Source: a virus (lineage: Duplodnaviria; Caudoviricetes). Taken from it: a stretch of 56,372 nucleotides of DNA. The translations under genes were made by a program, and so were the position numbers. The number at the start of each line of letters is the position of its first letter. The stretch's first letter is position 1. The notes below the pieces were generated by a model. The model was given only the letters and a program-made list of their open reading frames with translations, did no database searches and was not told the origin of the DNA. This document shows positions 4,053 to 56,372 of this stretch, one piece after another. Where the stretch lies: positions 1 to 56,372 of IMG/VR virus record IMGVR_UViG_3300044641_005442; one strand, 5' to 3'.

Positions 4053-4732
4053 GCTGGCACCTGTATTTCTAATTTAACATTTGGGTCTCGAACAGGAAAC
4101 TCACTATTTTTATCTACCAATGGTCTAGAGGTTACTACTTCCCATTGGTTTGCACTTTGTCTTGCATTCGCTTGAACAAAAAAAGGTTTATTTGGTGTAA
4201 TGACATTAAATCTTTCCTGGACTAAAGCACACCCATTATCAAATGGAATCTTTAATCTATAAGCAAAAATTTTAGCTATATCGGCAACAGTTTTTCTATA
4301 ATCTTTATTGAGATATAAAATTGCATGTGTTGCTAAAATTTTACCAATACGCATATAATGCTTGTCCACACGTTTGGTTATATAATGTTGATTTCCAGAA
4401 GAAATACCAAGATACACAGCATCTGTATCATCTTTTACTTCAATTTGAGGATGAAAATCTGGTGTGAATTCAGCATCATCTTCTAAAATTAGAATAGGGC
4501 AATCATATCGCATATCCTCTAAAATATCAATATGTGATTGAGCACAACCAACATAATGTTTAATTGTGTCCGGTGTCCCATGTGGTGGGGCTATTTGTAC
4601 GGCTGATTTGCGGTGGGTGTTGGAAAATCTGTGCTCACGAAATCTTTGATTCATGATTTCTGCGTTGCCAGTAGCACTGTCAAGATTAATCCATACGGTA
4701 GGTATTTGTCTTAGATCTATAATCATATTCAA
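4049..4732 (-). CDS. GT25-like glycosyltransferase
   Basis: WINLD, GCAQSH, LILEDDA motifs. Confidence 0.75.
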   Translation of the reverse strand: MNMIIDLRQIPTVWINLDSATGNAEIMNQRFREHRFSNTHRKSAVQIAPPHGTPDTIKHYVGCAQSHIDILEDMRYDCPILILEDDAEFTPDFHPQIEVKDDTDAVYLGISSGNQHYITKRVDKHYMRIGKILATHAILYLNKDYRKTVADIAKIFAYRLKIPFDNGCALVQERFNVITPNKPFFVQANARQSANQWEVVTSRPLVDKNSEFPVRDPNVKLEIQVPA

Positions 4733-15217: not shown

Positions 15218-17077
15218 TTAAGCGGAAGCACTAACTGTCAGCGTATAACCAAGAAGGCTTGAACTACCCAGTGGTGTTGTACCAAATGATGCTTGTATTG
15301 GATAGAATGTAATTGTTACAGTTATTAAAGTATTATCATTGGCAACTGGATTTACTACTACATCTGTTGCTGCAATCAATGAATTATTTAATCCAGTATT
15401 ATTTGTAATTGCACTTTTAATATCAGTAACTATTGATGCGCGCGTAATGTCATCATTAACCCTGTTTGGGGGTGCTACATAACCATCTAAAATGTCTTGT
15501 GCAAGTTTCGTGATTACGCGTTTCATTGACGTAACACCAATTCTATCTTCTATTCCATTTTGTGCTGATGTTGCCCCAACTAAATCTGTAGATAAAATGT
15601 ATCCATTAGTTCCTTGGACATAGTAATTAACACGTCTTTCTCGTAATGTATTAGCAATATCACTGGAACTAATAATTGTTGGTGTTATTGTATCAACATT
15701 TAAAACCTTAGAATTTACGCTACCAACAGAAGATTGGTAAATACTATTATTTGCTTTGGCTCTTTGTATTGAACCAGCTACATCTGCAACTAGAGGAATT
15801 TCTAATACAAGAGTTTTTGTTGCAGGATGTCCAAAGTTGTTACTGATAATTGTGCGTTTTTTCTTTCCAATTACACACATTAATCTATTAAGATATGGCT
15901 CTTCGATTAATGTATATGCAGTTAATCCAGCAGTATTAAAAACATTCTGGTATAACGATGGTAGACCGTCCAAACCAGGATAACGATAGACATCACTGAA
16001 AGTACCATTCAATGAGTTTTGTGCGATTGATATATCGGCACCAGACAACCCAGCATGAATAATATAAGCTGATTTTGTTGCTGTTCCTGAATTATCATCT
16101 AATGCACTGTTTACTAAATTATTTCGTTTAGTGATTTCTGTATAAATACTATTCAACCATTGTGCAGTAAGACCATGACAGAAATTAAATGTATTACCTA
16201 GCGCATAAGCATTTTCACTTCCACCATATACTAAACGTGAATTAGACGATGCGGATGTAATGCCTTGTCCGTCAATGTAAGTACTCATATCTAAAGTAAT
16301 AAATGCATCGAGAGGAGTAATACCATTAGATAGTGAAGTAGGTTGAGAAAATGATGATAAGGGATTATAATTACCCCCAATAATTACTTTTGCACCATAT
16401 GCAAGAGCTGTGAGTGCGGTATAAAACTCGATACCAGTTCTACTTAATTGATACTCTCTATTAATTGTATCAAGATTAGTAAAAGCTCCAGTGATTCCTT
16501 TTCCAATATAATCATATAACGATCCTGGTGTTGGTACAGCTTTTTGTGGTAATTCTGCTGTTAGTGTATTTCCGGTATACGATCCAGGAAAAAGTATATT
16601 ATTTACAAAATTAAATGCGTTTACCGTAGATAACGTTGCTAAAGGAGCCTCTAGTTCACCAAAACTATCAACAGCTGCCCAGGAAGATCCAGGCATAAAT
16701 TGACGTATAATATTATTAATATTATTATGAATATTATTTAAATGTCCTACAAATGCAGTTGGAGTATCAAATACAAATGCATCTGTACCTGTATCTTTTC
16801 CAGTTGAGTTCGATGCTGATATAAATTGTAATTTAACTTCAGGTACATTAGAAGATTCTGCAACTTTTAATATTCCATATAAACCAGAAGCAGTTAAACC
16901 TTTGTTTGCTGCTAATCCTCCTTGTGTAATAGCAAAATTTCCTGCAGAAAATGCTATTACAGCACGTTGAGTAATATTTGGTGGTGGCGTTTCATTTTCC
17001 CATTTTCCATTCCCTTTATCTAAAAAATCTGAAAAGGGGCTAACGGGTGTACCAACTGATGCTGCTTTGAATGCCAT
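15218..17077 (-). CDS. gp18: Tail sheath protein gp18 (strongly diverged)
   Basis: Position between gp17 and gp19; C-terminal IP..ADVAG, RVN, DRI.V, ND..TR match the sheath C-terminal domain; N-terminal half not recognisable. Confidence 0.72.
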   Translation of the reverse strand: MAFKAASVGTPVSPFSDFLDKGNGKWENETPPPNITQRAVIAFSAGNFAITQGGLAANKGLTASGLYGILKVAESSNVPEVKLQFISASNSTGKDTGTDAFVFDTPTAFVGHLNNIHNNINNIIRQFMPGSSWAAVDSFGELEAPLATLSTVNAFNFVNNILFPGSYTGNTLTAELPQKAVPTPGSLYDYIGKGITGAFTNLDTINREYQLSRTGIEFYTALTALAYGAKVIIGGNYNPLSSFSQPTSLSNGITPLDAFITLDMSTYIDGQGITSASSNSRLVYGGSENAYALGNTFNFCHGLTAQWLNSIYTEITKRNNLVNSALDDNSGTATKSAYIIHAGLSGADISIAQNSLNGTFSDVYRYPGLDGLPSLYQNVFNTAGLTAYTLIEEPYLNRLMCVIGKKKRTIISNNFGHPATKTLVLEIPLVADVAGSIQRAKANNSIYQSSVGSVNSKVLNVDTITPTIISSSDIANTLRERRVNYYVQGTNGYILSTDLVGATSAQNGIEDRIGVTSMKRVITKLAQDILDGYVAPPNRVNDDITRASIVTDIKSAITNNTGLNNSLIAATDVVVNPVANDNTLITVTITFYPIQASFGTTPLGSSSLLGYTLTVSASA

Positions 17078-24125: not shown

Positions 24126-24932
24126 TTAAATTGACTCATATGGTTTGTTATCTTCATATGGTGGATAGAACCTAGAATTTGTCATAGTGCTCAAAGATAG
24201 AATGGTAGTGTGACCACCATCATTTTTTATTACGTTTTTCGCACGCATAATATAATAGTAACCAGTTTTTACTTGGTTGGCTGGTTTATCGTCACTGAGA
24301 GTAGCTAATCCAGTAGGATCATCCATTTTTACATATACAATATCACCTGGGCGTTGACTCAAATCACCACCAATTGTAATTTCAATCAATTCTTTAATTG
24401 ATTCTACAAAATCTTGACGATTTATTGGGGTCTCTATTGGTGTATCCCAAAAGGTTGCAGATCCTAAACGATACTTTAAGAAATTTTCAAACATATCACC
24501 ATATAAAGGGCAGTTACAACTAAAGGTTGCCATTGGGTCAGGCCAAAAACAACCAGCCCAATCTTTGCCCAATATATTATAAATGTTCACACACTCTGGA
24601 TCTGGTTCGTTAAAGATTAAAGTAAACCCACCCGAACCACCTGCTATACCCAAACCTGATGCACCAGATAAACCACAAATACAAAGTCCACTGGTAGAAC
24701 CACTTAAACCAAAACTAGCCTCCAAACTATAAGTATTACCAACACCTAAAGCAAGAGCAATAGTTTTAATTTCTGGAAAAAGCTCATAACATTCTTCTAA
24801 TGTATATGGTGCTTCTACTTGACCAGTTGTGATTTTTGGATTTGCACAGGTATATGAATCTCTATTCGAAACAGCATTACCTGTTTGAATTTTTAATATA
24901 TTTGTACCAAGAATTGTTATTTTTTTAGCCAT
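24126..24932 (-). CDS. Putative baseplate hub protein, C-terminal part (gp27-like)
   Basis: IEITIGGD....PGD.V.V...TGYY.I....N.I......T.L.L resembles the hub C-terminal barrel. Confidence 0.5.
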   Translation of the reverse strand: MAKKITILGTNILKIQTGNAVSNRDSYTCANPKITTGQVEAPYTLEECYELFPEIKTIALALGVGNTYSLEASFGLSGSTSGLCICGLSGASGLGIAGGSGGFTLIFNEPDPECVNIYNILGKDWAGCFWPDPMATFSCNCPLYGDMFENFLKYRLGSATFWDTPIETPINRQDFVESIKELIEITIGGDLSQRPGDIVYVKMDDPTGLATLSDDKPANQVKTGYYYIMRAKNVIKNDGGHTTILSLSTMTNSRFYPPYEDNKPYESI

Positions 24933-27382
24933 TAGCAGATTCCATCAACTGCGTTTTCCGCAATAAAGTAATACATATATTCATTATCTAGGTTCGGGGC
25001 TGGTGGTATACAACCCATCTCTCTCAGTTTATTAACTTTAATTTTATACATTTTTACAATATGGGAAGCCGACTCCCATTTGTTGAATCCTGGACCGGAT
25101 GGTAAAGCATTACTATGGGTAAAAATACTTCCAGTAAATCCAATTGGTTTATAAGCAAATTGACCATTTGTAGTGATATTATCTTTATAATATCCTGGTC
25201 CTCTGTAATTTTTAGTATCTGTACCACTTTCACCTGGACCGTTTGGTATAGAATATATATTATCATTTTGACCATTTAATCTTTCATTAAGATTTATAGC
25301 CCATGATGACATACCAGTAAACGATCCACCAGCTTTCATTCCCGGACCATATAAACCATTTATCTCTGTAATAAACAATGAATCTGGCATACCAGTTGAA
25401 CCTATACATGGGCTGGTTGTCCATCCATGCATCATACTATGATATGATGCAGATCGTTCAATATCTGACGTATTCCCTGCAGTAAGCCCAACAAAAAGAG
25501 GTCCTGGTTCTAACTTTTTCCAAGAATACAACCATGCATCAGCTACATTTCCCAGTTTAATATCATTCTCTACCCCAATACCAGAACGTAATTTTCTATT
25601 ATCTGGAATAAAGCCTGTAATTTTTGCAAAGAACCAATCTTCTTTTGCTGTAAGATCGTCACCAATACAACACAAGACATTAGCAACAAAATTTTCTTTT
25701 TCAGTTTGTTCTAATTGTTTTCTGCGGTAATTATCATAATTATTTTTATCACCCATTGCTTTATATTTGGCTTGAAGCACTTTATTTAAAGTAATGGATT
25801 CTAATAATTCTGTAATTACTGTTTGAGAAAAAATATCTCCACCATCTGTATATAACAAGTCTGATAAATCTTGATAAAAATCAACTTCTTTTACGGATAT
25901 AACATCACCATCTTCAACTCTAACCAAATTTGGATGTGTTCTAGATAGATCGTATGCAAACTGCCACATATATGGATTGTCGTTAAATGGATATAACGGT
26001 GTCTGTGGATTTGGTTGCTGGTATGAATCACGTAAACCAAGAGGAGTAGCTTCAATATGGTTTAATAAAAATTCATATGATGCAACAGCATCCGTTGTAT
26101 TGATTTTTGTATTGCTTTGAGTAAAATCAGATGCATATCCATAGAATCCTCTATCCGGTAGATATGTTAAATTAGCATCTTCTAATGCCATAGTTCTCAT
26201 ACTATAGGTAACACCACCAGCAACATTTTCTGTATACTTGGTGACTGTGGTTAAATGTGTATTTGCCGAGTCGCTTAAATATGGACTCATCAGATTAACA
26301 GGATCTGTAGTTGAACCCGAAATACCAAATGATGGAATTTCCATGTATACTGGTGAATCTCGAATATAATAATAATTTTTATTAATTATACTTGTAGCTG
26401 GATTTGTTACCAATACATATATTTTTTTACATTCAATATCTTCGCCGTCAACATCTTTTAAAAGACGTTGAACATCGGGCGAATCATAAACACCATATGG
26501 TTGTATATGATATGGATCAGCAGGATCAAGATCAAATTTATATAATCCTGTAGTTAGATCACTGCGAAGATCAAAAAATTTGTAATTTAAACAATTTGTA
26601 AAATCAGTCCAAAACATATAATAGGGTTTTAACTGATTGCTACCATTAGGAGAACTTACAGCATATGTAAAAATATAATTCAAATATGAAATTATATTAG
26701 TTTGGTATTGTTCTTGTCGAGTTGCATCTGCTATTTTAGGTCTAAACAAAACAGCATTTTTAGGTTCAAAGTTATTTTTAATATTATTGTTTATACCACA
26801 TCCCCTTAATATTATTTCATTACCATCAGAATCTCTTTTATTAAATAATGGCTTTGAAAAAACTGATCGGTATCCATATGTTTTGATAATATGTTCTGGT
26901 GTAGTTACAAACGGATATGATATATCCCACAAAGAACTAGGGACTGCTGTTACTTCACCCTCAGAATCTGTTTCATAAACAATCTCATCATAAAATGACT
27001 TTCCTTGAGATTCTTGGAATATTTTATTTGTAAAATAGATAACTACAAAAGTTTGATCTATTTCAGATACAGCATTATTGGCATAAGTTATTGATGTAAT
27101 ACTCCATTCATATTTTTCAGAAGTAGTGTCATCAAGATCACCCATAGAAACAATAATGGATTTTATCTCTTTTGCTGCAATGTAAGTTAAGATGTCACTA
27201 GTATCTCTAACAATGAGAGCACCAGTTGGAAAAATATTATTAACACTTTCTTCCAATTCCATACGCTCAAATTGACAAAATTTATTATTTTTCATCAATT
27301 CAATATCAAAATCAGAATCCTCGGTTGATAAATTTGATTTTAATATGATCGATTGTATTGGTGACGAAATAGGATTTTGCAT
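24932..27382 (-). CDS. Putative baseplate hub protein, N-terminal part with large insertion
   Basis: ELEESV...FPTG.L.VRDT.DIL resembles the gp27-like N-terminus; Y.FW.D....NYK; downstream of gp53. Confidence 0.5.
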   Translation of the reverse strand: MQNPISSPIQSIILKSNLSTEDSDFDIELMKNNKFCQFERMELEESVNNIFPTGALIVRDTSDILTYIAAKEIKSIIVSMGDLDDTTSEKYEWSITSITYANNAVSEIDQTFVVIYFTNKIFQESQGKSFYDEIVYETDSEGEVTAVPSSLWDISYPFVTTPEHIIKTYGYRSVFSKPLFNKRDSDGNEIILRGCGINNNIKNNFEPKNAVLFRPKIADATRQEQYQTNIISYLNYIFTYAVSSPNGSNQLKPYYMFWTDFTNCLNYKFFDLRSDLTTGLYKFDLDPADPYHIQPYGVYDSPDVQRLLKDVDGEDIECKKIYVLVTNPATSIINKNYYYIRDSPVYMEIPSFGISGSTTDPVNLMSPYLSDSANTHLTTVTKYTENVAGGVTYSMRTMALEDANLTYLPDRGFYGYASDFTQSNTKINTTDAVASYEFLLNHIEATPLGLRDSYQQPNPQTPLYPFNDNPYMWQFAYDLSRTHPNLVRVEDGDVISVKEVDFYQDLSDLLYTDGGDIFSQTVITELLESITLNKVLQAKYKAMGDKNNYDNYRRKQLEQTEKENFVANVLCCIGDDLTAKEDWFFAKITGFIPDNRKLRSGIGVENDIKLGNVADAWLYSWKKLEPGPLFVGLTAGNTSDIERSASYHSMMHGWTTSPCIGSTGMPDSLFITEINGLYGPGMKAGGSFTGMSSWAINLNERLNGQNDNIYSIPNGPGESGTDTKNYRGPGYYKDNITTNGQFAYKPIGFTGSIFTHSNALPSGPGFNKWESASHIVKMYKIKVNKLREMGCIPPAPNLDNEYMYYFIAENAVDGIC

Positions 27383-36434: not shown

Positions 36435-39400
36435 TTAATTTGTCAATGCGACACAAGTTAAATCTGATGCAACAGCAATCATAGAAGTATTACCATCTTG
36501 ATATTTAAGGAAAGCATAAAACCTATCGATATTATCGTTCCCACATCCACTTGACAAATCCCAACCACCTTGAAACGCTACAGGATCCAATGTCATACCT
36601 GTAGGAATCCATGTAGATTTTAATTCTTCATAAACTCTAAACAGTTTAAGTGTTTGTTGTTCTGTATACGTTATTTTGTCTCCAACTAAATTATATTTTG
36701 TTAAATCATCTATATCATATTCTTCAAGAACATCATAAACTGCATTCGCATTACATTGTAAATTACACCCAGCACACTGTGCATCATAGTTTGGACATGG
36801 ACACGCTGGACCCGTATAACATAGCGCAGTAAACCCTGGGGGTAATCGTCCTGTATATGGACCAAATTTCACTAAAGGTCCCAAATATGTTGACGCACCA
36901 GCTTCTAGATATAAAGTTTTATCAAACAAAGCAATTGAACTACTAAGAGATCCACCTGAATGTACTGGAACACCATTTCCTATGTTACCAGCTCTACATG
37001 CTGCTCCAGGATTATATATCCATCCACCTGGACCCAATAAATTAGCTCCAGCCTTTTTATCTTTGCATCCAGAACAGAACTGACATGTGTTAGTTGGAGA
37101 ACATACTTCATCTGCACTACAATAACAATCTTGACATGCAGTTGATCTACTACCAAGATTTATAGAACTAGAAAAACTTTGTTTTAATTGTTGTAAACGA
37201 TTACCACCAACATAAACTGTTGGGTATTGCATATAATAATCTACCTGATAATATTTTACAATACAATCTTCTGGAGTCATCGTATAATTCATATAAACTG
37301 CCGAAGTAGCACCAGGGTTTGCTCCTGTTCTACCATCACCCCAGTAATATGATCTATATTTTAAAGGTGCATCTTTTACCTCATACAACCCAGTAGTAGA
37401 ATTATAACCATAATAAAAACATTTTTTTGCATAATAAAAATAAGTTATATTTGTATCAACAACACCACAGCATACTCCACCAACACCTTCATCGACTGCT
37501 TGACTGGCACTTGTTTTTCCAAAATATTTATGAGATTGAACAAAAAAATCTTTATTTGAAGAAAATCCAGATCTTCCGTAAACACTACCATCAAAACAGT
37601 TAGTACCAAGTCCTACAAAACTCTTGGGACCACCACAAGCATACTTATAATAAGTTTCTGATTCTGGTGGACATCCACATACATCTTCACAATCACAACG
37701 AAAACCAGTACCAAATTGTGTTTCTTGTTTTGAATATTGAAATGCACTCGGTGAACCATCACCCACCCAACATATATCACCGATACCAGAATAACACCCA
37801 CCAATCAAACCACCTAATTGACGATTTGTATCTCCGTTTATTCCAGCACCGTTTCCTGTACCATAATCAATAGGTTGCAATCCATCATCACCATTTTCAT
37901 CGCGCATCAGTCCGCAACCAGTTAGATCTTCTTGTGGATCCCTTGTATGTAATGGAGTAACTTTTTGATATCTTCTGTCATTAGGTTTCATCCAATAATA
38001 TTTTGGGTGACCCGTAAAACATAAATTAGCTTCACCTTTTTTCCAGTAGATACTGCATTCATCTTTTAATATTACTTCATTGTCTTGTTCTTCGCCTTGT
38101 AGCTGCTTACAGGATCTACCAAATAACCATTTGGAAAAATCCCAATGACCTTTTACACATCTAAAGAAAGCTTGACTTTGGAAATATAAAGGAAGATCAC
38201 CAGTACTAGTAAATTGTAATAAATTATGTCCTGTATATGTATTAAACGAACTTTGTTTCCAGGTATTAATTCTGAATCCACTATTAACAATACCAATTGC
38301 ATGACCATAACTTAAGGCAGCATCTTCAAAGTCATATTCGGTATATGGTAATTTATTAACACCAAAATCATATGAACCTTGTGTATTACGCGAAGGTCGT
38401 GTAAAAATATCTAAGAATTTTTGAGCATTATTTTGTCTTCGGTACAATACACCAAAAGAATTTACACCAGCTATAATTTTTTCAATATAGTTGTAAGATT
38501 TAGTGTCAGATCCGGTTAAACCAGAAATTGCAGTATTGTTTAATGCAGAAACCATTTCTGAATGTCCCCAAATAATAACATTCACTGGTGTATCTGACCC
38601 CGTTACAGCAAGACTATAATCAGGTCCACCATCTACTTGAAATATCTTAATAGTAGCTGGGTCTTTTTTTGCTGTTGTATAAACATAATTATCTGGGTCA
38701 TCTTCATTTACTCCCCTACAACCTAAAGTTATTCCACCAAGTGTCCATTTATCCGGATTAATAAGATTGATTGGTGTAAATGCTGGTATAGGATTTATTC
38801 CAGTATTACCTGTTATATCTTGTTGATTTGGTTGAAGAACATTACCAGACTGATCAACTTTAACATAGCTACCCCATACTTTTAAATTCTGATCAGAAGA
38901 AACAGCAATACTATGATATTGTCCAGCACCAACGTTTATGTAAAAAGGTCTTTCCGGTGTAATATCATAATATCCAGGAGTACCATCTATAGCACTATTT
39001 AAATCATAAAAATTATTAACAGAATACAAATAACATCTAATATCACATTTTTTTCTTGTATTATCATTATACGGAATGATGTTACTGCAATTAGTCGTTT
39101 TCCATAATGAAAGACTATCTCCATTCCATTCAATGTCTTTAAAATAACCAGGTACAGGCATGTTTTCAATATATGTTAAATCTGATTCAACTGAAACTGC
39201 TGCTGGTGCTTTACCATATGACATTTGATCATATGTATTATCACTATCTGGAGTTACAAATAAACATCCATCACCAGTAATAGCAACACAATGTTTTGCT
39301 CCTGCTGCAACATCTACCCATAATCTATATCTATTTTTTAAAGGCATTGTATTTGCAACACCATTTGGTCTAATACTTTCATCATTAGAAGAAGGACAAT

Positions 39401-42400
39401 AATATAAGCCACCTGGAGGATTATAAAAAATACCATATGTATTATCAGGTCCCCAAGTTTTTAAAGCAAATGTATTATCATTAACTCCATAACCATAACC
39501 AGGACAGCTAGGGTATACACCCCAGTAACCAACTGTTGGTGTATCACCACGGTAAACACCACCATAGTTTGGATCAGAAGGACCACTTGAAATTGCTTGA
39601 ACACCAGAATTAGAATCTAATCTTCTATTTGCTACAGTACCATTATTACCACGATGATTTCCGATAGGAAATGCCCCATAGCTTACTAAAGCAACAGCAA
39701 ATTTACCTTTACAAGAAATTTTTTCTATACTTCCAGGAGCAGCATCGTCTGGATTTTCTTGAAGATCTTGACGATAACTTAAATGTAATGGTACACACCC
39801 AAGTGATCTTGTAAAATTAGCTGGGTCACTGTCTATAAGACATTCAGGAAGAGAATTATTTCCTGTAATTTGAACTTTTCCATTTACAGTAATAGCAAAA
39901 TTAGTGCCAAGATCATTTGTATGAACAGAAGAATACACTAAATTAACATTTGATTGTATATCTAGTGGATATGGATCATATGTGTCACAACCAGCATTTT
40001 CACATCCCCATGCTGTTAAGCCGGATGAAAGTGGTGTTGGTATTAATTTAACTCTTCGTGGTCCCAAGAACATTGGACCAGGAAGACTTTTCTTGGTAGC
40101 CAAATTTACTGAATACCGCAAACTCTCTGGGTTAATCATTCTCTTAATGACTTTAGCTGTTACGTATGGTTTAAGTGAAGCCCAATCTGTAATAGTATTA
40201 TTACCAGCATCAAAACCAATTAAACGCTTTAAAAAAGTTATTAAATAATTATAACCAGCAGATCCACCAATTTGTGTTTTAATAAAATTATTTGGGAATA
40301 CTACAACAGATTCACTATCAATAGTTTCAACAGTAATTTGATCTAATATTTCAATCAATTCATCAGCAATATCTTTTGCGTGGTCTTTGATACTGATAAT
40401 ATTATATCGAATCATTTCAGTAAGACAAGTAGATACATAAGAATACATTGCAACATCTTTTGGTTCAACATAAGGTTCACCTACAACAGAAGGTTTGATA
40501 AGATTATTATAAAAATACAAATAATATTGTTCTAAAAATTTAGAACCATTAAACGTTTCACCTTCAATTAAAATATTTTTTTCACGTGATAAATGTTCAA
40601 AGGCATAAAGATCTGAAAAGAAGATAGGAACACCAGATGAACCATACATAACAGTTCGTGGTGTATAGTGTAAAATCTGCCAACGCATTGCAGCTCTTGG
40701 TTCATATTGAAAACTACAAGGTTTTACAAACCCAGCATATGGTCTTTCATAAGGTAGTAATAAAATTAAGGCATGATTCATTAACAAAGGTGGTTGTGGA
40801 GAAAATGGAGCTTTACTGTGATATGCCCATGACTCAAAATGATGTTCTAAAGATACAATTCCAACTAATTTATTGTATAAAGAATCTTTTTTATTATACA
40901 TTTTAGTAAAACGTAATGCTGTCCACTTTTTACCATCTTCTAATATAGAAGAAGATCTATATGTTGCACCTAAAGTTTCTTGTTGTGCTGGATTATCTGA
41001 ACCATAATGAAAAATATCAAATGCTAAAGTATAAAGCGAAATAGATATTCTACTTAAATATGGTGAAATACCACGACTAAAACAACTAGTTCTATAATTA
41101 GGATTATAAGCTGGTGGACTTATAAGTATATTTTCAGTACAACCAATACCTATAGCTTGTATACTAGAACCCCAACCACTTGCTTTTGGATAAGATAAAT
41201 ATTTACCTCTTCTTGTATTAAAAAGCTCCCCTGACTGTGAACAAGTACCCGAAGTATTACTGGCACTTTGTGTGGTAAAACAAGTACAACATCCTAATTC
41301 TGAGATATTTACTTTTGGTAAAAATGGATTTTTTCCTGCAATATATCCACCAAAAAATTGTTTCTTAGAAACATTAATACGTCTTTGTAAAGTATCATAT
41401 ATTCCACCACTCAAATGTGGGAATTGGGTACATTGGCAAGGATAACTATTATAATCTCTTGAGCAATCAGTATCACCACTATCAAATACATTTTGCCCAC
41501 AAGTAAGCTCAAAGTTACCTTCTGATGAACCATCTGTTCCATTTACTCTTCCAAAGAAATAATCACATGTTTTTATTCCCTTTGGATTTAAATATCCAGG
41601 GCATTGACTTGGAGTTCTATTATAATTAAAAACATATTCTGGTGGATACCAGATAAAATTACAAGATGAATATCTGTAAATAAAATAAATTGGAGGTGCA
41701 GCTGGGTTACCACCACTGAATACACATTTAGTACATGGGTTTTGTCCTACTGGTATAGTCTGATTATTACCATAATCACCTTCACCAAGACTTTTTACTA
41801 AATTTGAAACATCTGTTTTACCAGCATAGATATCTGTTGTATCTAATTCTGGATCTAATGCTATCATATCATCTTGGTAATTTACATTACTTAATAACAT
41901 TTCACTATTTTTTATTTGTTGTGGGGTTCCACCATAAATTGGATCACAAAAATTACTGCATTCTTCAGAACAATTTTCACAAATATTAGTATTTTTATTT
42001 TGACAATTTATACTAATATCATCATCAACACAATCAATGTCAATATTATTATCTTGTAAACATTTTTTACATCTACTTAAAAATTCTAATTTTGATTTAA
42101 ATCTTTCATTTTGAAAATTAATTTTATTAGTAGTTTGTGTTACTTGTTTTTCATTTTCTTTTAATTTTTTATTTGTATTTACATCAAGGCTAGATAAATA
42201 ACCTAAACTTGTAATTTTATATTGGTCCATGAATGATGGAGGGTTTTTAAAAACTCTATTAACAAATTTTTTAAATATAGATGGAACATTATTTGGTGTT
42301 TGTTTGTTTGTCACTCCATCTCCAGGAGGACAATCAGGCAGACCAGGACATCCACATGTAATATCAGTATTTACGTAACGACATTGACAAGAATCAGAAC

Positions 42401-42794
42401 AGCCACCAGGTGAAGAAGATGGAACTGAACAACAACATGGTGTGCATCGACCGGCAAATTCATTGTAATATGCGTTAGTTATATCAAAATTACCGTATAA
42501 ATCTGTAAATCTACCACATAAACATCCATCAGCAGAACATGTCCTACAACATTTTGGGCAAGAACTGGGTCCACCACCACCCGGTCCTCCACCACCACTC
42601 GAAGCTGCTGCTATTGAATAATTTCTTCCATATGATTGTGCGCCTGGACGATTAATTTTTAAAACTATCAAATCTTGATCAGATACAGGACATGCGCTAT
42701 CTAATTCAGTATCAAATAAAGTTACGAATTGATCTTTTAAAATTGGGTCACAGCACGTATTCGAAGTCGTACAACAACATTTTCTTGATATCAT
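36435..42794 (-). CDS. Giant Cys-rich protein with RCC1/BLIP-II-like repeats (putative virion adhesin)
   Basis: 2119 aa; starts MISRKCCC; repeats VDVAAGAKHCVAITGDG, INVGAGQYHSIAVSSDQNLKVWG, QVDGGPDYSLAV...IIWG; late TAAATA at 42816. Confidence 0.7.
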   Translation of the reverse strand: MISRKCCCTTSNTCCDPILKDQFVTLFDTELDSACPVSDQDLIVLKINRPGAQSYGRNYSIAAASSGGGGPGGGGPSSCPKCCRTCSADGCLCGRFTDLYGNFDITNAYYNEFAGRCTPCCCSVPSSSPGGCSDSCQCRYVNTDITCGCPGLPDCPPGDGVTNKQTPNNVPSIFKKFVNRVFKNPPSFMDQYKITSLGYLSSLDVNTNKKLKENEKQVTQTTNKINFQNERFKSKLEFLSRCKKCLQDNNIDIDCVDDDISINCQNKNTNICENCSEECSNFCDPIYGGTPQQIKNSEMLLSNVNYQDDMIALDPELDTTDIYAGKTDVSNLVKSLGEGDYGNNQTIPVGQNPCTKCVFSGGNPAAPPIYFIYRYSSCNFIWYPPEYVFNYNRTPSQCPGYLNPKGIKTCDYFFGRVNGTDGSSEGNFELTCGQNVFDSGDTDCSRDYNSYPCQCTQFPHLSGGIYDTLQRRINVSKKQFFGGYIAGKNPFLPKVNISELGCCTCFTTQSASNTSGTCSQSGELFNTRRGKYLSYPKASGWGSSIQAIGIGCTENILISPPAYNPNYRTSCFSRGISPYLSRISISLYTLAFDIFHYGSDNPAQQETLGATYRSSSILEDGKKWTALRFTKMYNKKDSLYNKLVGIVSLEHHFESWAYHSKAPFSPQPPLLMNHALILLLPYERPYAGFVKPCSFQYEPRAAMRWQILHYTPRTVMYGSSGVPIFFSDLYAFEHLSREKNILIEGETFNGSKFLEQYYLYFYNNLIKPSVVGEPYVEPKDVAMYSYVSTCLTEMIRYNIISIKDHAKDIADELIEILDQITVETIDSESVVVFPNNFIKTQIGGSAGYNYLITFLKRLIGFDAGNNTITDWASLKPYVTAKVIKRMINPESLRYSVNLATKKSLPGPMFLGPRRVKLIPTPLSSGLTAWGCENAGCDTYDPYPLDIQSNVNLVYSSVHTNDLGTNFAITVNGKVQITGNNSLPECLIDSDPANFTRSLGCVPLHLSYRQDLQENPDDAAPGSIEKISCKGKFAVALVSYGAFPIGNHRGNNGTVANRRLDSNSGVQAISSGPSDPNYGGVYRGDTPTVGYWGVYPSCPGYGYGVNDNTFALKTWGPDNTYGIFYNPPGGLYYCPSSNDESIRPNGVANTMPLKNRYRLWVDVAAGAKHCVAITGDGCLFVTPDSDNTYDQMSYGKAPAAVSVESDLTYIENMPVPGYFKDIEWNGDSLSLWKTTNCSNIIPYNDNTRKKCDIRCYLYSVNNFYDLNSAIDGTPGYYDITPERPFYINVGAGQYHSIAVSSDQNLKVWGSYVKVDQSGNVLQPNQQDITGNTGINPIPAFTPINLINPDKWTLGGITLGCRGVNEDDPDNYVYTTAKKDPATIKIFQVDGGPDYSLAVTGSDTPVNVIIWGHSEMVSALNNTAISGLTGSDTKSYNYIEKIIAGVNSFGVLYRRQNNAQKFLDIFTRPSRNTQGSYDFGVNKLPYTEYDFEDAALSYGHAIGIVNSGFRINTWKQSSFNTYTGHNLLQFTSTGDLPLYFQSQAFFRCVKGHWDFSKWLFGRSCKQLQGEEQDNEVILKDECSIYWKKGEANLCFTGHPKYYWMKPNDRRYQKVTPLHTRDPQEDLTGCGLMRDENGDDGLQPIDYGTGNGAGINGDTNRQLGGLIGGCYSGIGDICWVGDGSPSAFQYSKQETQFGTGFRCDCEDVCGCPPESETYYKYACGGPKSFVGLGTNCFDGSVYGRSGFSSNKDFFVQSHKYFGKTSASQAVDEGVGGVCCGVVDTNITYFYYAKKCFYYGYNSTTGLYEVKDAPLKYRSYYWGDGRTGANPGATSAVYMNYTMTPEDCIVKYYQVDYYMQYPTVYVGGNRLQQLKQSFSSSINLGSRSTACQDCYCSADEVCSPTNTCQFCSGCKDKKAGANLLGPGGWIYNPGAACRAGNIGNGVPVHSGGSLSSSIALFDKTLYLEAGASTYLGPLVKFGPYTGRLPPGFTALCYTGPACPCPNYDAQCAGCNLQCNANAVYDVLEEYDIDDLTKYNLVGDKITYTEQQTLKLFRVYEELKSTWIPTGMTLDPVAFQGGWDLSSGCGNDNIDRFYAFLKYQDGNTSMIAVASDLTCVALTN

Positions 42795-52307: not shown

Positions 52308-52562
52308 ATGGACATGAAAGCTTTCCGTGCAGACCTGCAACAAAAATCGTTTAACGCTCGTAAGACTAATAACTACGAGGATCGCATTAATGTCACATAC
52401 AAGGGAATGGTCAGCGAAACTTCCGAAGAGCACTACAAAGCAGTATCAGAAAATTTAGAAAAATCTGTAAATTTTCTAACTGGTGTTCTACGTGCAGCTG
52501 AGTATCAATCAATTAATGTTGGTATACAAAATGCACTTCTAGGTAGAAGTAATATTTTATAA
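52308..52562 (+). CDS. Hypothetical protein
   Basis: Start reassigned to ATG 52308 after the + strand TAAATA at 52297-52302; stop overlaps the next ATG. Confidence 0.55.
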   Translation: MDMKAFRADLQQKSFNARKTNNYEDRINVTYKGMVSETSEEHYKAVSENLEKSVNFLTGVLRAAEYQSINVGIQNALLGRSNIL

Positions 52563-53155
52563 TGATTTCAAAACAAGGTAAAAAATGGGTTGTGAAAGAT
52601 TCTACTGGTACGAAAGTACTGGGAACACATCCATCAAAAGAAAAAGCACAAGCACAACTTGCGGCGATTGAGATCTCAAAGAAAAAAAGAAAAGCTTTTA
52701 AGGAACATGTAGAAAATAATCAATCAATGATATCATTCAAACAATTTATAAACGAAGGTGACGGTTATATTGCCACTCCGACTGTGAATCCACTTCCGGA
52801 TAGTTTTAAGCATCAGACTCCACCAGGATATCCTGGAACACAACAACATGGTCCAATGGCTCCTTTCAGACCAGGAAACCCTCAAGGTGAAAATCATCCA
52901 ATGCCTGGATCGACTTTTACAACTCCAGAAGGTTATACTTATACCTATCAAGATGGAAGATGGACTTTAACTGGAAGACCTCCACAAATCAAGCCAGTAC
53001 CAAGACCAACTACTCAGCCAGTTGGGAGACCTTCAAAGCCTGTAACTCCAAGACCTGGAACCGGTGAGACTACGGATCCTAACTACAGACCAATTCCTAA
53101 AAGACCTGGGCAGGGCGAACCAACAGATCCGGGATATATTCCGCTACGCAGATAA
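52562..53155 (+). CDS. Pro-rich protein with small N-terminal phage domain and internal FKQFINE motif
   Basis: MI.K.G.KW.V....G.KVLGTH.SK..A..QL.AIE; duplicated RPG.GE.TDP.Y.P near the C-terminus. Confidence 0.65.
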   Translation: MISKQGKKWVVKDSTGTKVLGTHPSKEKAQAQLAAIEISKKKRKAFKEHVENNQSMISFKQFINEGDGYIATPTVNPLPDSFKHQTPPGYPGTQQHGPMAPFRPGNPQGENHPMPGSTFTTPEGYTYTYQDGRWTLTGRPPQIKPVPRPTTQPVGRPSKPVTPRPGTGETTDPNYRPIPKRPGQGEPTDPGYIPLRR

Positions 53156-53184
53156 TACTCAAAAAATTATAAAATAATTTAAAC

Positions 53185-53211
53185 GGGTCTCCCAAGAGGG
53201 GACCCCTTTTT
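53185..53211 (+). terminator. Intrinsic terminator
   Basis: GGGTCTCCC-aaga-GGGGACCC hairpin followed by CTTTTT, 30 nt after the stop at 53155. Confidence 0.6.
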
Positions 53212-53426
53212 ATGGGTTCCAGGGGGGACCCATTTTTTTCATATAACCTGGGAAAAGGGGGGGGGACCCATTTTTTGACCTCAGAGGTATTCTGGGGGGG
53301 GGACCCATTTTTCTGAAAAGAGGGTGGGGGGGTCTTTTGAGGATTGAGAGGGTGTTGGAGGTTTTTGAGAAAATTTAAAGTTGATTGGCTAGCCGCCACG
53401 ATTTTCTGACGGAAAGGGGACCCATT
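53198..53426 (+). repeat. G-tract repeats G(4-9)ACCC(A/C)TT(T)n, five copies
   Basis: Copies start at 53198, 53222, 53257, 53294 and 53416; extra G runs at 53322-53332. Confidence 0.85.
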
Positions 53427-53451
53427 CTACTGTCTGGACAGTGAAAGTCAA
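53424..53451 (-). promoter_or_regulatory. Sigma70-type promoter facing the G-tract block
   Basis: TTGACT-16-TAGAAT; inverted repeat ACTGTC-tg-GACAGT over the spacer. Confidence 0.5.
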
Positions 53452-53540
53452 GTTAATTCTCCCAAGAATTTAAAAAAATCATCCGGCAAGCAGGATAATA
53501 TTATCGGACGCATCACAGGGCGATACTTTGACCTACCCTA

Positions 53541-53568
53541 TTGCATTCTGCAGCCGTTTCGGTACACT
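53541..53568 (+). promoter_or_regulatory. Promoter for 53575 (predicted leaderless mRNA)
   Basis: TTGCAT-16-TACACT ending 6 nt before the ATG. Confidence 0.55.
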
Positions 53569-53574
53569 TGACGC

Positions 53575-54033
53575 ATGGCTACCGCCCCTCACTCACTCGC
53601 CCTTCCGAATCTTCCTGCGCCGCAGGGTCTTGGAACGCGCAGCGCGGTGATGGGCGGTAGCCTTGGAGATTCTGCTATGCAGATCGTTTACCGTCAGGCG
53701 TCCGTATTTACTTCCGCCTCCGCCTCGTGGGATATCGCACGCCGTGAAGTTGAGACCGCTACGGCGCTCTCAGACATTCGCACTGCCTGCGCTGCGGTTA
53801 CCGCAGCGGGTGCGGGTCGGATCAAATGGACTCGCGTCTCCGAGTCCGACGAATCCGGTAAGGATCGGTTACCCGGTCAGTTCGACGGACGGAGCGTACT
53901 GAAGTTGCACGTATCCCCGAACGTCACAAAGGCAGGGAAGGTCATGGTGACGGTGATCCTCGCCGCCACTGACGTGAACCCCGTCCGCACCGTTCACGTG
54001 AGGGCTGAAACGCTCCTCTTCGTGAAGGCGTAA
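53575..54033 (+). CDS. Hypothetical protein (GC-rich putative early region)
   Basis: 152-aa ORF bounded by a promoter and a GC hairpin. Confidence 0.6.
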   Translation: MATAPHSLALPNLPAPQGLGTRSAVMGGSLGDSAMQIVYRQASVFTSASASWDIARREVETATALSDIRTACAAVTAAGAGRIKWTRVSESDESGKDRLPGQFDGRSVLKLHVSPNVTKAGKVMVTVILAATDVNPVRTVHVRAETLLFVKA

Positions 54034-54046
54034 GGGGAACGGATGC

Positions 54047-54072
54047 GGGGAGGGGCTCGACAGCCCCTCCCC
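54047..54072 (+). other. GC-rich intercistronic hairpin
   Basis: GGGGAGGGGCT-cgac-AGCCCCTCCCC perfect 11-bp stem, no long U tail; followed by AGAAAGA and an ATG. Confidence 0.7.
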
Positions 54073-54105
54073 TTGACGGAGAACCCAAACTAGAAAGAAC
54101 GAATC

Positions 54106-54516
54106 ATGGCTACTGAAATTGAAATCTCCCGCGCCCGTGAATCCGTCCGCACAACGATTAGGAATCTCACACACAGTGTCGATACCTGTGATTGCACTCC
54201 GGTGCAAGCACGTTTCATGTTCTTATCCGCTGCGCTACAGGCAGTCGGTTGCTCTTCTGAATTCGGGAGCGCCATGGAACGCAAGGTGGCCGCTCGGGAA
54301 CTCCGCGACCAACTACAGGAACTTCTCACGTTCTTGCACGTGGCAGTGTACCCACGCTGCGAGAAGTGCGCTGATACTGAGGCCGACCTGACGTGGCAGG
54401 GTAACAAGCAGTACTGCACACCGTGCACCAATACGATGCGCGTACAGAAGATGGAGGAGGAACTCGCCACTGCACGCGCAGTGCGTACAATCGAAGGAGT
54501 TCCCTTCGGTATTTGA
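54106..54516 (+). CDS. Hypothetical protein with CxxC...CxxC zinc-finger-like motif
   Basis: RCEKC...YCTPC; AGAAAGA RBS-like element at 54092. Confidence 0.6.
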   Translation: MATEIEISRARESVRTTIRNLTHSVDTCDCTPVQARFMFLSAALQAVGCSSEFGSAMERKVAARELRDQLQELLTFLHVAVYPRCEKCADTEADLTWQGNKQYCTPCTNTMRVQKMEEELATARAVRTIEGVPFGI

Positions 54517-54520
54517 TCCA

Positions 54521-54775
54521 CCTACTCCCGACAGCACCCGGCTCCCTACGACGGAGGCCGGGTGCTGTCGCATCTACACGGCCTATCGGCAATCGGCGTA
54601 GCCGCCGATAGGCCTCAGTATACTGAGTTGCATAGAGATGTCAAGAGAAATCTTTCAAGATTTGTAAATAAATTTCGAGACTGTATTGGTTTGCATCGTT
54701 CTACCATTCGTGTACAATCCATGCAGACCGCGAAGCGTTTCGCGTTCAACGCCACTAGTAGGAGTAGAACCCATG
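54521..54775. repeat. Intergenic module copy 1 (double hairpin, divergent promoters, conserved leader)
   Basis: CGACAGCACCCGG/CCGGGTGCTGTCG stem 54529-54570; GGCCTATCGGC/GCCGATAGGCC 54580-54614; minus TTGACA-16-TATACT 54617-54644; plus TTGCAT-16-TACAAT 54691-54718; ACTAGTAGGAGTAGA 54754-54768. Confidence 0.88.
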
Positions 54776-55399
54776 AGTCTGACCCCAGCCACCGTTTCCA
54801 GCCTGTCCCCAGTCATCGTTTCCGCGATTCGTGACCACAGACGTTTGCAATACAACGCGTCTGTAATAGCGAATACTGATGATGTTGGTGGTAATGATGA
54901 ATATGACGTAAATGAATGCGTCTATGAAGAAATTACTGACATCTTTGCAGAAATTGCAGGCGTGGAAGATATTGATGTCTGGTATCAGAGTGCCCAGTGG
55001 TGCGCCATGGAGGACGTGTTTAACGATATGGTGAAGACGGCAGAGGTACAGATAAAGGCGGACAGACTTCGGCGCGTATTGGAACAGCACGCTACGGCGT
55101 TTGCTGTCCGCTGCGGTTTCAAAGTCGGCACACGTGAGTACGTCCTCGCTGCGCGTAAGGCGCTGGATGAGGCTAGGACGGCTCATGATGAACAGTTCAA
55201 CGGCGAACGCCGTATGGAACGCGCAGCGACCAGCCGCGCGTGTGGCGTCTCTGGTGAGGATCACTACGCCAACGAGGACTACCTGTCCTCTGAGTTCCAT
55301 AAGGATGTGGAATGGATGCAGGATGTTCTGAACTGGCTGGAGGAGAATTGTCCTCTTCTTATGCTCAAGATCGCGGAGGAGCCAGCACCAGCAGAGTAA
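54773..55399 (+). CDS. Hypothetical acidic protein
   Basis: Start reassigned to MSLTPAT (ATG 54773) after the AGGAG RBS. Confidence 0.65.
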   Translation: MSLTPATVSSLSPVIVSAIRDHRRLQYNASVIANTDDVGGNDEYDVNECVYEEITDIFAEIAGVEDIDVWYQSAQWCAMEDVFNDMVKTAEVQIKADRLRRVLEQHATAFAVRCGFKVGTREYVLAARKALDEARTAHDEQFNGERRMERAATSRACGVSGEDHYANEDYLSSEFHKDVEWMQDVLNWLEENCPLLMLKIAEEPAPAE

Positions 55400-55407
55400 T
55401 CTTTCAC

Positions 55408-55666
55408 GCGACAGCACCCGGCTCCACCAAAAGGAGACCGGGTGCTGTCGCATTTCCGCGTACTATCGGCGAATCGGCGTAGCCGCCGATAGGCCGAGCA
55501 GTGTACCATGCGGAGCAAGAATGTCAAGCAAATTCTTTCAAGTTGGACAAGAAATTTTCTTTGATATACTTTGTGGAATTGTCTTGTGTTGAATTGTGGT
55601 TGTGTTATAGTTCGGGCATGGAAACGAATCGTTCGTTTCCCCGCAACTAGTAGGAGTAGACCTATG
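55408..55666. repeat. Intergenic module copy 2
   Basis: Same stem 55408-55451 with a different 7-nt loop; CTATCGGC/GCCGATAG 55463-55492; minus TTGACA-16-TACACT 55500-55527; plus extended -10 TATAGT 55606-55611; ACTAGTAGGAGTAGA 55646-55660. Confidence 0.88.
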
Positions 55667-56020
55667 AGTAGTTTCACCAAAGAGTATTTGACCCCGTCCG
55701 CAACCACTGACAATCCTCATTCGAGCATCCCCGAATTGCGCGGTGTACCGTTCATGACGCACACCGCTGCGTTGTGGATCCTCCGCTCAAACTTGGAGCA
55801 GTCCGTTTCCCCATCCGTCCGCCGTTCGCGAAAGTTCGTAAAGTCCCTCCAATTGATGTGGGACTCGCTCGAACCAGTCATGCGAAAGATCGATGATCAG
55901 AACGAGAAAGTGCGACTGGCTCACAATGCCAGAATCCGCGCTCGGCAAGACCGTAGTCTAGTCCTCATGGTTGAGGGAGCCCCGATCAAACTCGGAGCCG
56001 AAACCCCCGCCGGAGCCTGA
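55664..56020 (+). CDS. Hypothetical protein
   Basis: Start reassigned to MSSFTKE (ATG 55664) after the same AGGAG leader as 54773. Confidence 0.6.
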   Translation: MSSFTKEYLTPSATTDNPHSSIPELRGVPFMTHTAALWILRSNLEQSVSPSVRRSRKFVKSLQLMWDSLEPVMRKIDDQNEKVRLAHNARIRARQDRSLVLMVEGAPIKLGAETPAGA

Positions 56021-56026
56021 CCCACG

Positions 56027-56044
56027 GGGGGGCGAAAGCCCCCC
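56027..56044 (+). other. GC-rich intercistronic hairpin with GAAA tetraloop
   Basis: GGGGGGC-GAAA-GCCCCCC, followed by AGAAAGA at 56058 and an ATG, same layout as 54047-54106. Confidence 0.65.
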
Positions 56045-56070
56045 TACCCTCTACCAAAGAAAGATTCACA

Positions 56071-56286
56071 ATGGCATACACTGACCGAAATTTCAAGACG
56101 AAGAAAGACCTGAAGGCGGCAGTAGCCGCAGGTGACGTAACGGTGTTCGCTCCCGGACCGTTCGGGGGAGCAGTGATGGACGGACTCTGCTACTTGGAAG
56201 GACCACACTTCCCGAAGCCACACACATGGTACGCCCAAGTGTTCGTAGTGGACGGACGAATCAAGCAAGGAACACGCGTCAAATAA
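56071..56286 (+). CDS. Small conserved phage hypothetical protein
   Basis: NFKTKK.LK.AVAAG...PGPFG...LEGPH.P.PH.WYA motif, which I recall from other phage genomes; function unknown. Confidence 0.7.
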   Translation: MAYTDRNFKTKKDLKAAVAAGDVTVFAPGPFGGAVMDGLCYLEGPHFPKPHTWYAQVFVVDGRIKQGTRVK

Positions 56287-56293
56287 CCAACCG

Positions 56294-56372
56294 CCTACTC
56301 CCGATGGCACCCGGCTCCCTACGACGGAGACCGGGTGCTGTCGCGTACTATCGGCAAATCGGCTGCGCCGAT
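56294..56372. repeat. Intergenic module copy 3 (truncated by window end)
   Basis: CCTACTCC, then CGATGGCACCCGG/CCGGGTGCTGTCG stem 56302-56343, then TATCGGC..ATCGGC.GCCGAT. Confidence 0.85.

Follow-up and report, generated by a model that had tools for sequence, protein, structure and literature searches.

Near its right-hand end (positions 54521 to 56372), the window analysed here, i.e., the complete 56,372-nt stretch of the IMG/VR virus record IMGVR_UViG_3300044641_005442, carries three copies of a repeated, structured element, each of which lies just downstream of the stop codon of a small gene. Comparisons with related contigs suggest that these three repeats are probably the upstream halves of terminator-promoter linkers of about 250 bp, of the promoter/stem-loop (PeSL) type found in T4-type phages, and that the gene cassettes which they separate are shuffled. 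The array belongs to a known kind of system, in a more elaborate form and in a new lineage, and it opens a GC-rich hyperplastic region of about 15 kb that is made up of small early genes.

A complete module of about 250 bp consists, in this order, of a first hairpin (HP1), a second hairpin (HP2), a promoter directed backwards at these hairpins, an AT-rich block, a forward promoter, a hairpin in the 5' leader and a ribosome-binding site (RBS) box. The three HP1-HP2 pairs follow the stop codons at 54514-54516, 55397-55399 and 56284-56286 after a gap of 5-15 nt, and they are confined to 54521-56372, with no further copy elsewhere in the 56 kb. HP1 is built from an outer stem of 13 bp and an inner CTCC/GGAG stem, with a single bulged purine and a loop of 7 nt (CTACGAC or ACCAAAA), and in a repeat search its copies form one family, 74-84% identical to the reference copy. 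As RNA, HP1 and HP2 fold together to -60 kcal/mol (z = -8.1 and -8.3), and none of 200 dinucleotide shuffles folds as well. A preliminary description of this DNA had claimed the same element, with this stem, bulge and loop, after three stop codons (ending at 54516, 55399 and 56286), and for both complete copies a leftward TTGACA promoter, a rightward promoter, a leader hairpin and an identical box before the ATG; all of these can be found in the sequence, as can the CA to TG changes in the third stem, which give G-U pairs on the + strand only. Likewise, no T run follows HP1 on either strand, as had been stated, and a terminator scan lists no site at HP1 or HP2 in the window. The features from the first intergenic spacer to the end of the window are listed below (SD, Shine-Dalgarno; aa, amino acids; fractions of 12 give the agreement with the sigma70 consensus).

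54047-54072, + strand: "type 2" spacer, a promoterless G-run/C-run intergenic hairpin between two genes of one unit
54106-54516, + strand: orf136, CxxC-rich, in a variable slot that holds unrelated or strongly diverged genes in relatives
54521-54528, + strand: CCTACTCC, the complement of the SD box GGAGTAG; on read-through RNA, pairing with 54760-54766 is predicted
54529-54570, + strand: HP1 copy 1, loop CTACGAC
54580-54614, + strand: HP2 copy 1, GGCCTATCGGC...GCCGATAGGCC, inner CGGC-GUA-GCCG
54617-54644, - strand: putative backward promoter TTGACA-16-TATACT, 11/12, predicted start at the edge of HP2
54639-54689, + strand: TGTCAAG...CAAGAT block and AT-rich stretch between both promoters, UP-element-like
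54690-54718, + strand: putative forward promoter of gene A, 9/12 by scan, read manually as TTGCAT-16-TACAAT
54729-54744, + strand: 5' leader hairpin CGCGAA-GCGT-TTCGCG
54754-54768, + strand: common ribosome-binding box ACTAGTAGGAGTAGA, copy 1
54773-55399, + strand: gene A, 208 aa, orphan; the entire cassette is missing from two related contigs
55409-55450, + strand: HP1 copy 2, loop ACCAAAA
55463-55492, + strand: HP2 copy 2
55500-55527, - strand: putative backward promoter TTGACA-16-TACACT, 10/12, with TG before the -10
55584-55611, + strand: forward promoter candidate TTGTGT-16-TATAGT with TGn, read manually, below the scan threshold
55620-55640, + strand: 5' leader hairpin GGAAACGA-ATCGT-TCGTTTCC
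55646-55660, + strand: ribosome-binding box ACTAGTAGGAGTAGA, identical copy 2
55664-56020, + strand: gene B, 118 aa, orphan
56026-56044, + strand: type 2 spacer hairpin GGGGGGGCGAAAGCCCCCC
56071-56286, + strand: gene C, 71 aa, orphan
56294-56301, + strand: CCTACTCC, copy 2, at the 3' end of the unit that begins with a gene using the GGAGTAG box
56302-56343, + strand: HP1 copy 3, left arm with CA to TG, so that U-G and G-U pairs form on the + strand only
56348-56372, + strand: HP2 copy 3, cut by the window end; module and array go on in relatives

With respect to the number of copies, the related genome G001 (locus L021) contains seven HP2-bearing modules (M1 to M7), all of them located before + strand genes, together with a first promoter block that lacks HP1 and HP2, and a second relative, G002, contains six. 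The modular expression cassette array of small orphan genes that had been proposed is supported, with at least seven modules per genome (G001) instead of three. HP2, the backward promoter and the AT-rich block are common to all seven module types, and HP1 is present in M1-M4; M5-M7 carry instead, at the position of HP1, unrelated hairpins with T tracts, i.e., ordinary terminators, of which the scan of L021 calls those of M5 and M7 on the + strand and that of M6 on the - strand only. This substitution is the best argument for regarding HP1 as a putative 3' end signal of the rightward transcription unit.

The secondary structures are well conserved among these copies. In the outer stem of HP1, 103 of 104 cells are paired across eight distinct sequences, two pairs have changed on both sides (A-U/G-C via a G-U intermediate, and G-C/A-U), and G-U pairs occur at three positions on the + strand versus one A-C. 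For the HP2 stem the corresponding figure is 80 of 80 cells (10 distinct sequences), with one compensatory change from G-C to A-U, and the HP2 loops, of 11-20 nt, close with GUA, GAA or GGA triloops in most module types. Between modules the leader hairpins vary in sequence, and where orthologues are compared, A-U pairs have been replaced by compensatory G-C pairs; the orthologue of the hairpin at 55620-55640, for instance, has GGAAGCGA/TCGCTTCC. The covariation for which a check had been proposed is therefore present to some extent, in two pairs of HP1 and one of HP2. The competition of two ATCGGC copies for one GCCGAT, by which the preliminary description had characterised the second hairpin, is present in five of the seven module types of the relative but absent in two, so that the motifs stand and their competition as a conserved property does not.

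In the searches made, the module is confined to one narrow lineage. The tighter of the search patterns returned true modules at 20 of 21 loci on viral contigs and at 13 of 36 loci on metagenome contigs, the remainder lacking HP2 and being discarded as chance matches. A looser pattern run over the collections gave HP2 at none of 117 loci among the matches listed, a second loose pattern gave true modules at seven of 121 among the matches listed, and a locus search with the GP88-like gene recovered only the three known relatives. The HP1 pattern matched no contig in the collection of bacterial and archaeal genomes, and Rfam gave no match at E <= 1 in 53000-56372. Relatives that share a CobS-like protein at 74% and about 60% identity have arrays of forward promoters which lack HP2 and a strong backward promoter. 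By these searches, HP2 and the backward promoter are specific to the close lineage of the window.

In one set of such loci (L324-L330), within the 3.5 kb that precede the CobS-like gene, TTGACA-17-TACAAT promoters (11-12/12) recur every 300-600 nt with transfer RNA (tRNA) genes between them, in DNA of 45-60% G+C. A block of the form TGTCAAG-N8-10-CAAGATT-N-AAAAT with a -10-like hexamer at promoter distance can also be seen in the unrelated viral contigs L211, L235, L247, L263, L278, L292, L296 and L308, in some of them together with a divergent forward consensus promoter; the search pattern itself imposed the block, and chance is a possible explanation.

Evidence for shuffling comes from comparing the gene content of the window, G001, G002 with contig c2335, G004 and the metagenome contigs, in which the flanks are 88-98% identical while the cassettes differ. 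The window, G001 and G004 carry the cassette of gene A, which G002 and c2335 lack; the slot of orf136 is occupied by different genes from lineage to lineage; G002 lacks gene E of G001, the indel ending in a repeat of about 10 bp, AACCTACTCC; and after module 2 of G004, a different gene takes the place of the window's genes B and C. Every cassette-sized difference among these sequences ends in a module or in a conserved spacer hairpin. A comparison of relatives for gene gain, loss or reordering with breakpoints at the module had been proposed in the preliminary description, and its reading is supported by this gain, loss and replacement of cassettes. In addition, two modules are chimeric: in module 2 of G002, HP1 combines an M4-type left arm with an M2-type right arm, resulting in a single A-C mismatch, and in module 2 of locus L178, M3-type hairpins are joined to M2-type promoters. 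In L178/L180, the leader/RBS segments of modules 2 and 3 are identical to each other, unlike those of the two modules in G001, and this identity in the aligned sequences indicates gene conversion. Three assemblies, including the window, break inside a module.

As regards the enzymes that might act on the modules, PHROG scans of 67 window open reading frames (ORFs) revealed no tyrosine recombinase or integrase and no Y1/HUH enzyme, and PF00589 and PF01797 were found in none of four related records, which are only 9-32% complete; the recombinase or HUH nuclease that the preliminary description had proposed to look for was not found in the window or in these records. The consensus of attC core sites is RYYYAAC...GTTRRRY, and no such pair occurs on either strand of 53001-56372, in line with the earlier statement that the consensus motifs of attC sites and of repetitive extragenic palindromic (REP) elements do not fit (no core pairs; PF01797 in none of the four records). 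Given the lack of a dedicated recombinase and of attC cores in these searches, and given that crossovers lie at varied positions within the module, shuffling by the general homologous recombination of the phage, as in T4, is the economical reading.

The interesting part of the module is its conserved backward promoter. In 53100-56372, a consensus scan finds seven sigma70 sites, against 1.9 +/- 1.3 in shuffled sequences, and the backward promoters are the best matches among them. In the 16-kb island of L021, where all genes read are on the + strand, six of the eight sigma70 matches of 11-12/12 lie on the - strand, each aimed at HP2, and the seventh backward promoter reaches 10/12. Pairwise comparison of the seven paralogs gives an identity of 1.00 in the -35 and 0.90 in the -10 hexamer (TATACT, TACACT or TATAAT, always TA..[AC]T), as compared to 0.46 for the 16-nt spacer and 0.38-0.55 for the flanks, at constant spacing. 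Hexamers conserved at fixed distance beside a drifting spacer point to a selected promoter and not to a drifting repeat, and the backward promoter therefore looks selected, judging from this pattern of conservation. Transcription from it is predicted to begin at the HP2 edge or as much as about 9 nt ahead of HP2, and there is no conserved ORF behind the promoter. The antisense or small-RNA control that the preliminary description had suggested may thus exist. The forward promoters of L021 reach 9-10/12 by scan in three of the seven modules and were read by eye in the others.

Taken together, each module would likely close one early transcription unit and open the next. HP1 would end or stabilise the rightward transcript, and the forward promoter with its leader would provide each cassette with its own early expression, driven by the host polymerase. 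The common sequence of the modules would at the same time be a substrate for the homologous recombination of the phage, for which UvsY and a UvsW-like helicase are encoded in the window, so that cassettes could be swapped. Tentatively, the backward promoter might send polymerases head-on into the U-less hairpins and so enforce termination between cassettes, leaving as the only product of backward transcription a two-hairpin RNA of about 85-95 nt. For convergent genes of Escherichia coli, the available part of one report describes head-on polymerase collision as needed against read-through, with a stem-loop fixing its position (10.1101/2022.10.23.513370). It is conceivable, although here too the odds are below even, that a near-consensus promoter with no gene of its own is kept solely as a transcription insulator for early cassettes, with the sequence complementary to the SD box as a second, translational seal. 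If collision termination were true, the backward promoter would be a natural compact insulator for a problem which synthetic biologists solve with strong terminators.

The complementary sequence in question is CCTACTCC, which might, with less weight than the other steps of the scheme, mask the next SD on read-through RNA. Its CUACUCC is predicted to pair with GGAGUAG in the minimum free energy as well as the centroid folds of whole modules. Such complements of the SD are situated about 235 nt ahead of it or else behind the stop codon of the gene itself. In G001, the sequence following the stop codon of a unit's first gene complements the RBS of that same gene over 11 nt (gF), 9 nt (gG) or 7 nt (gD); the paired sites are 4595-4613 with 5359-5369 and 5672-5680 with 6135-6144 in L021, and 55652-55658 with 56295-56301 in the window. 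Among shuffled sequences, 0.12% of trials reach at least 9 nt, and the complementarity of the 14 remaining cognate pairs is 3-5 nt. Four of six RBS-bearing units show such complementarity between post-stop sequence and RBS, a pattern that was noticed after the fact, and the modelled pairing possibly represents a masking of translation between the 5' and 3' ends of the transcript. Masking of the RBS on read-through transcripts is known for the T4 genes e, soc and I-TevI, and pairing between 5' and 3' untranslated regions for the icaR mRNA of Staphylococcus aureus. The resemblance lies in a short SD-complementary sequence placed such that only some forms of the transcript would be translatable; the difference is that the predicted pairing here involves a sequence about 235 nt upstream or behind the stop codon, and only in some units.

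By its encoded core genes and its identities to cyanomyoviruses, the window derives from an uncultured, T4-like lake myovirus, and a search for sequencing runs that contain the stretch returned 24 of lake-water DNA and listed none of RNA. PHROG scans identify structural genes (portal, major head protein, scaffold, prohead protease, both terminase subunits), a tail tube, sheath-associated proteins and baseplate parts, as well as genes for replication and regulation, namely a gp32-like single-stranded-DNA-binding protein, UvsY, a UvsW-like helicase and a gp33-like late-promoter regulator. The nearest isolates are cyanomyoviruses, with 53% identity in the major capsid protein and 47-48% in the portal, and on the basis of these protein identities the phage belongs to a distant, uncultured lineage. 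A 2119-aa ORF at 36435-42794 on the - strand, with a G+C content at third codon positions (GC3) of 0.13, has no PHROG match at E <= 1e-5, nor have ORFs of 816 aa (24932-27382) and 619 aa (15218-17077).

The array differs from the rest of this genome in base composition. G+C content is about 0.27-0.45 across the first 53 kb versus 0.53 in the final 2-3 kb, rising from about 0.33 to 0.53 inside 300 bp near position 53400, and GC3 is 0.56-0.66 in five island genes as opposed to 0.13-0.44 in eight genes from the rest of the window, among which the gp32-like protein (0.44) and the major head protein (0.39) have the highest values. Lower-GC phage DNA flanks the GC-rich stretch on both sides in G001 and G002, where it forms an internal island of early genes of about 15 kb. 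The island of the relatives also carries genes for tRNA-Lys(UUU), Leu(UAA), Arg(UCU) and Ile(UAU). The contrast fits either a GC-rich host, with early genes written in host-like codons before phage tRNAs are available, or a recent acquisition, and the jump of 20 points in G+C and GC3, along with the phage tRNAs for AT-rich codons, provides a case in which stage-specific codon adaptation can be tested. In its distal part, the island of G001 (L021 11147-14688) encodes a CobS/MoxR-like AAA_5 ATPase of 322 aa, which has thousands of relatives at about 60% identity, and a 728-aa protein with no Pfam match, a pair that we take to resemble the cobS/cobT arrangement of aquatic T4-like phages.

The left edge of the island, in front of the array, comprises the following features.

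53185-53328, + strand: three T-run terminator-like hairpins with repeated GGGACCCATTTT, which end the AT-rich + strand gene 52562-53155
53424-53451, - strand: putative backward promoter of the first promoter block, TTGACT-16-TAGAAT, 10/12, by consensus scan
53541-53568, + strand: forward promoter candidate TTGCAT-16-TACACT, read manually
53575-54033, + strand: orf152, the first island gene, 152 aa, GC3 0.66, with no match in Pfam, PHROG or phage tblastn searches

The hairpin cluster at 53185-53328 is the border between the AT-rich genome and the GC-rich island. G-tract repeats, GGGGGGACCCATTTTT, which form T-tract hairpins, occur at this border in the window (53185-53330) as well as in L008 (2020-2260), and GGGACCCATTTT is present in three exact copies in the window and in more in a relative, the copy number varying among relatives. 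The first promoter block has neither HP1 nor HP2, and its backward promoter at 53424-53451 aims into the T-tract hairpin cluster, repeating the design of the modules with unrelated hairpins. The ATG of orf152 lies 6 nt past the -10 of the candidate promoter at 53541-53568, so that the start looks leaderless, and several island genes begin 6-9 nt past a -10 with no SD and are candidates for the same type of start (window 53541-53577; L021 8220-8256, 12467-12504 and 15000-15037). Leaderless-looking starts behind consensus promoters are also common in the relative with 74% identity (L324 359-400, 1110-1135 and 1827-1870); such starts are uncommon among T4-like phages and might hint at the identity of the host. 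Besides the modules, type 2 spacers recur in the island (window 54047-54072 and 56026-56044; L021 3185-3235, 3967-4015 and 6134-6193) as a G-run/C-run hairpin followed by AAAGAA..CACAATG, and gene replacements end at them, too. The island genes have no match in Pfam, PHROG or phages; a search of GenBank phages with 53160-56372 returned no DNA match, and neither gene A nor orf152 had a tblastn match there.

Several points weigh against interpreting the modules as PeSL-type linkers with an insulating backward promoter. The covariation is thin, the two compensatory pairs of HP1 and the one of HP2 stemming from related paralogs and orthologues of one narrow lineage and not from independent events. 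HP1, having no U tract, fails the textbook test for an intrinsic terminator, and the forward promoters are weaker matches (9-10/12, one below the threshold) than the backward ones, which is the opposite of published PeSLs. The extra parts of the module may be young passengers of a spreading repeat and not an old functional design, and the promoter, terminator and antisense activities are predicted from consensus matches and conservation. Mapped contigs of four lake runs contained no deletion or circle junctions, contigs being prone to drop rare forms. The loose ends examined in these contigs were considered as recombinants and rejected, as they correspond to paralogous modules aligning in part. 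One rival explanation makes the backward transcript itself the selected product: each module would be a small-RNA gene for an RNA of about 85-95 nt running from HP2 to HP1, more than seven paralogs would be expressed at once, acting antisense on the 3' ends of early mRNAs or as decoys for a host protein, and shuffling would be secondary. We regard this as unlikely, although it would account for the backward promoter being the best-conserved and most consensus-like signal of the module, retained even where a T-tract terminator already ends the upstream unit, and for HP2 lying at the predicted +1 to +9 in all seven paralogs with its stem kept and a compensatory change. However, the G-U pairs of HP1 (three versus one) and the GNA triloops of HP2 (GUA, GAA and GGA versus one UGC) favour folding of the + strand, the HP1-type modules have no U-tract terminator on the - strand, no Rfam family matches, and the element is absent from the next-closest relatives.

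A quite improbable explanation is that the modules are ordinary terminators and promoters which are alike through tandem duplication and take no part in recombination. In its favour, paralogous modules are only 70-85% alike over most of their length, the gene E indel is bounded only by the repeat of about 10 bp and not by whole modules, and the contigs of the four runs gave no direct junctions; yet all cassette-sized differences end in a module or conserved spacer hairpin, the two chimeric modules have their crossovers inside the module, and gene conversion is indicated between modules 2 and 3 in one lineage. Still more doubtful is a site-specific cassette system, be it integron/attC-like or HUH/REP-like, with HP1 or HP2 as folded recombination site. 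Imperfect palindromes with a bulged base right after stop codons, and a G-U pattern suggestive of single-strand folding, are what such a system might look like, and in the accessible part of their article the authors who described PeSLs speculated about the stem-loop as a target of a DNA-binding protein (Arbiol et al. 2010, PMC2839356). Against it stand the negative searches for a tyrosine recombinase or a Y1/HUH enzyme in the window and in the four incomplete related records, the lack of an attC core pair, cassettes with promoters of their own, crossovers at different places of the module, and the replacement of HP1 by unrelated terminators. Finally, the abrupt jump in G+C near 53400 and the adjoining G-rich repeats, which are able to mislead an assembler, might suggest that the end of the window is a chimeric assembly of a T4-like phage with foreign DNA and that the array is foreign to the phage. 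This is scarcely credible, as the identical junction and AT-rich flank (88-98% identity) are found in related IMG/VR contigs, lower-GC phage DNA bounds the island on both sides in G001 and G002, and contigs from four other lake runs tile over 52445-53697.

A number of known elements were considered for the repeats and rejected: integron cassettes, as no integrase and no attC core pair were found and each module has its own promoter-like sites; REP elements or bacterial interspersed mosaic elements, as the HP1 pattern occurs in none of the bacterial and archaeal contigs and PF01797 in none of the four related records; an ordinary intrinsic terminator for HP1 and HP2 of the window, where no terminator-like site was called; a mimic of CRISPR (clustered regularly interspaced short palindromic repeats) repeats, as the HP2 loop varies from 11 to 20 nt and there is no array of that kind; a dimeric operator, as the spacing of half-sites varies; and a tRNA-like element, as ARAGORN finds only ordinary tRNAs.

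The closest resemblance is to the PeSLs. According to the available parts of two publications (PMC2839356, PMC4122927), PeSLs are intergenic motifs that recur in the hyperplastic regions of T4-type genomes, where they adjoin indels, and they consist of an upstream stop codon, an AT-rich stretch, a sigma70-like -35/-10, a stable stem-loop, an SD and a start codon. In RB49 and phi1, promoter and terminator activity as well as excised mini-circles have been demonstrated (PMC2839356), and PeSLs were also described for the phage pairs PST/T4 and nt-1/KVP40 (Comeau et al. 2014, PMC4122927). Six of eight defining features are found in the modules, the other two being experimental ones. The genome is that of a T4-type myovirus with a variable region of small non-core genes, in which the repeats of the motif are concentrated (three in the window, seven in G001, six in G002); consensus matches point to an early promoter of sigma70-like type, preceded by an AT-rich stretch, with SD and start codon behind it; a stable stem-loop lies between the upstream stop and the downstream start; and the modules adjoin or lie close to the insertions, deletions and replacements by which close relatives differ. 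The preliminary description had presented the array as its best candidate for an undescribed system and had named the PeSLs only as an analogue; this novelty does not hold, since the T4-like genome, the anatomy and the adjacency to indels all match PeSLs as portrayed in these sources.

So far as these portions of the literature go, the modules share with PeSLs the order of their parts, the many copies per region and a sequence that is specific to the lineage. They differ in the length of about 250 bp, in HP2, in the near-consensus backward promoter that faces the hairpins, in the 5' leader hairpin, in a forward promoter weaker than the backward one, and in residing in a region whose G+C content exceeds that of the remaining genome by about 20 points; moreover, the activities and mini-circles were shown experimentally for RB49 and phi1, while the window modules are described from sequence. 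A backward promoter is not described for PeSLs in the parts of PMC2839356 and PMC4122927 at hand; in the former the word "antisense" does not occur, and "divergent", in the one viewed of its six occurrences, refers to sequence divergence. A literature search that was not exhaustive returned nothing pertinent on backward promoters at terminators in phage early regions. A parallel is offered by the bidirectional collision terminators of E. coli, in which, going by the accessible text, convergent transcription likewise meets at a stem-loop between units (Wang, Watters, Ju and Liu, bioRxiv 10.1101/2022.10.23.513370), but in which the partner is a real gene and not, as predicted here, a dedicated promoter with no gene behind it.

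Linkers of the PeSL type are thought to let T4-like phages try out small new genes, and they have been described mainly in coliphages and vibriophages. The present case would extend them to an uncultured freshwater lineage, in which the chimeric linkers represent direct footprints of crossovers. Beyond PeSLs as the available parts of the published accounts depict them, the array adds a second hairpin that is kept in all seven paralogs, a conserved backward promoter and, possibly, a sequence that masks the SD.

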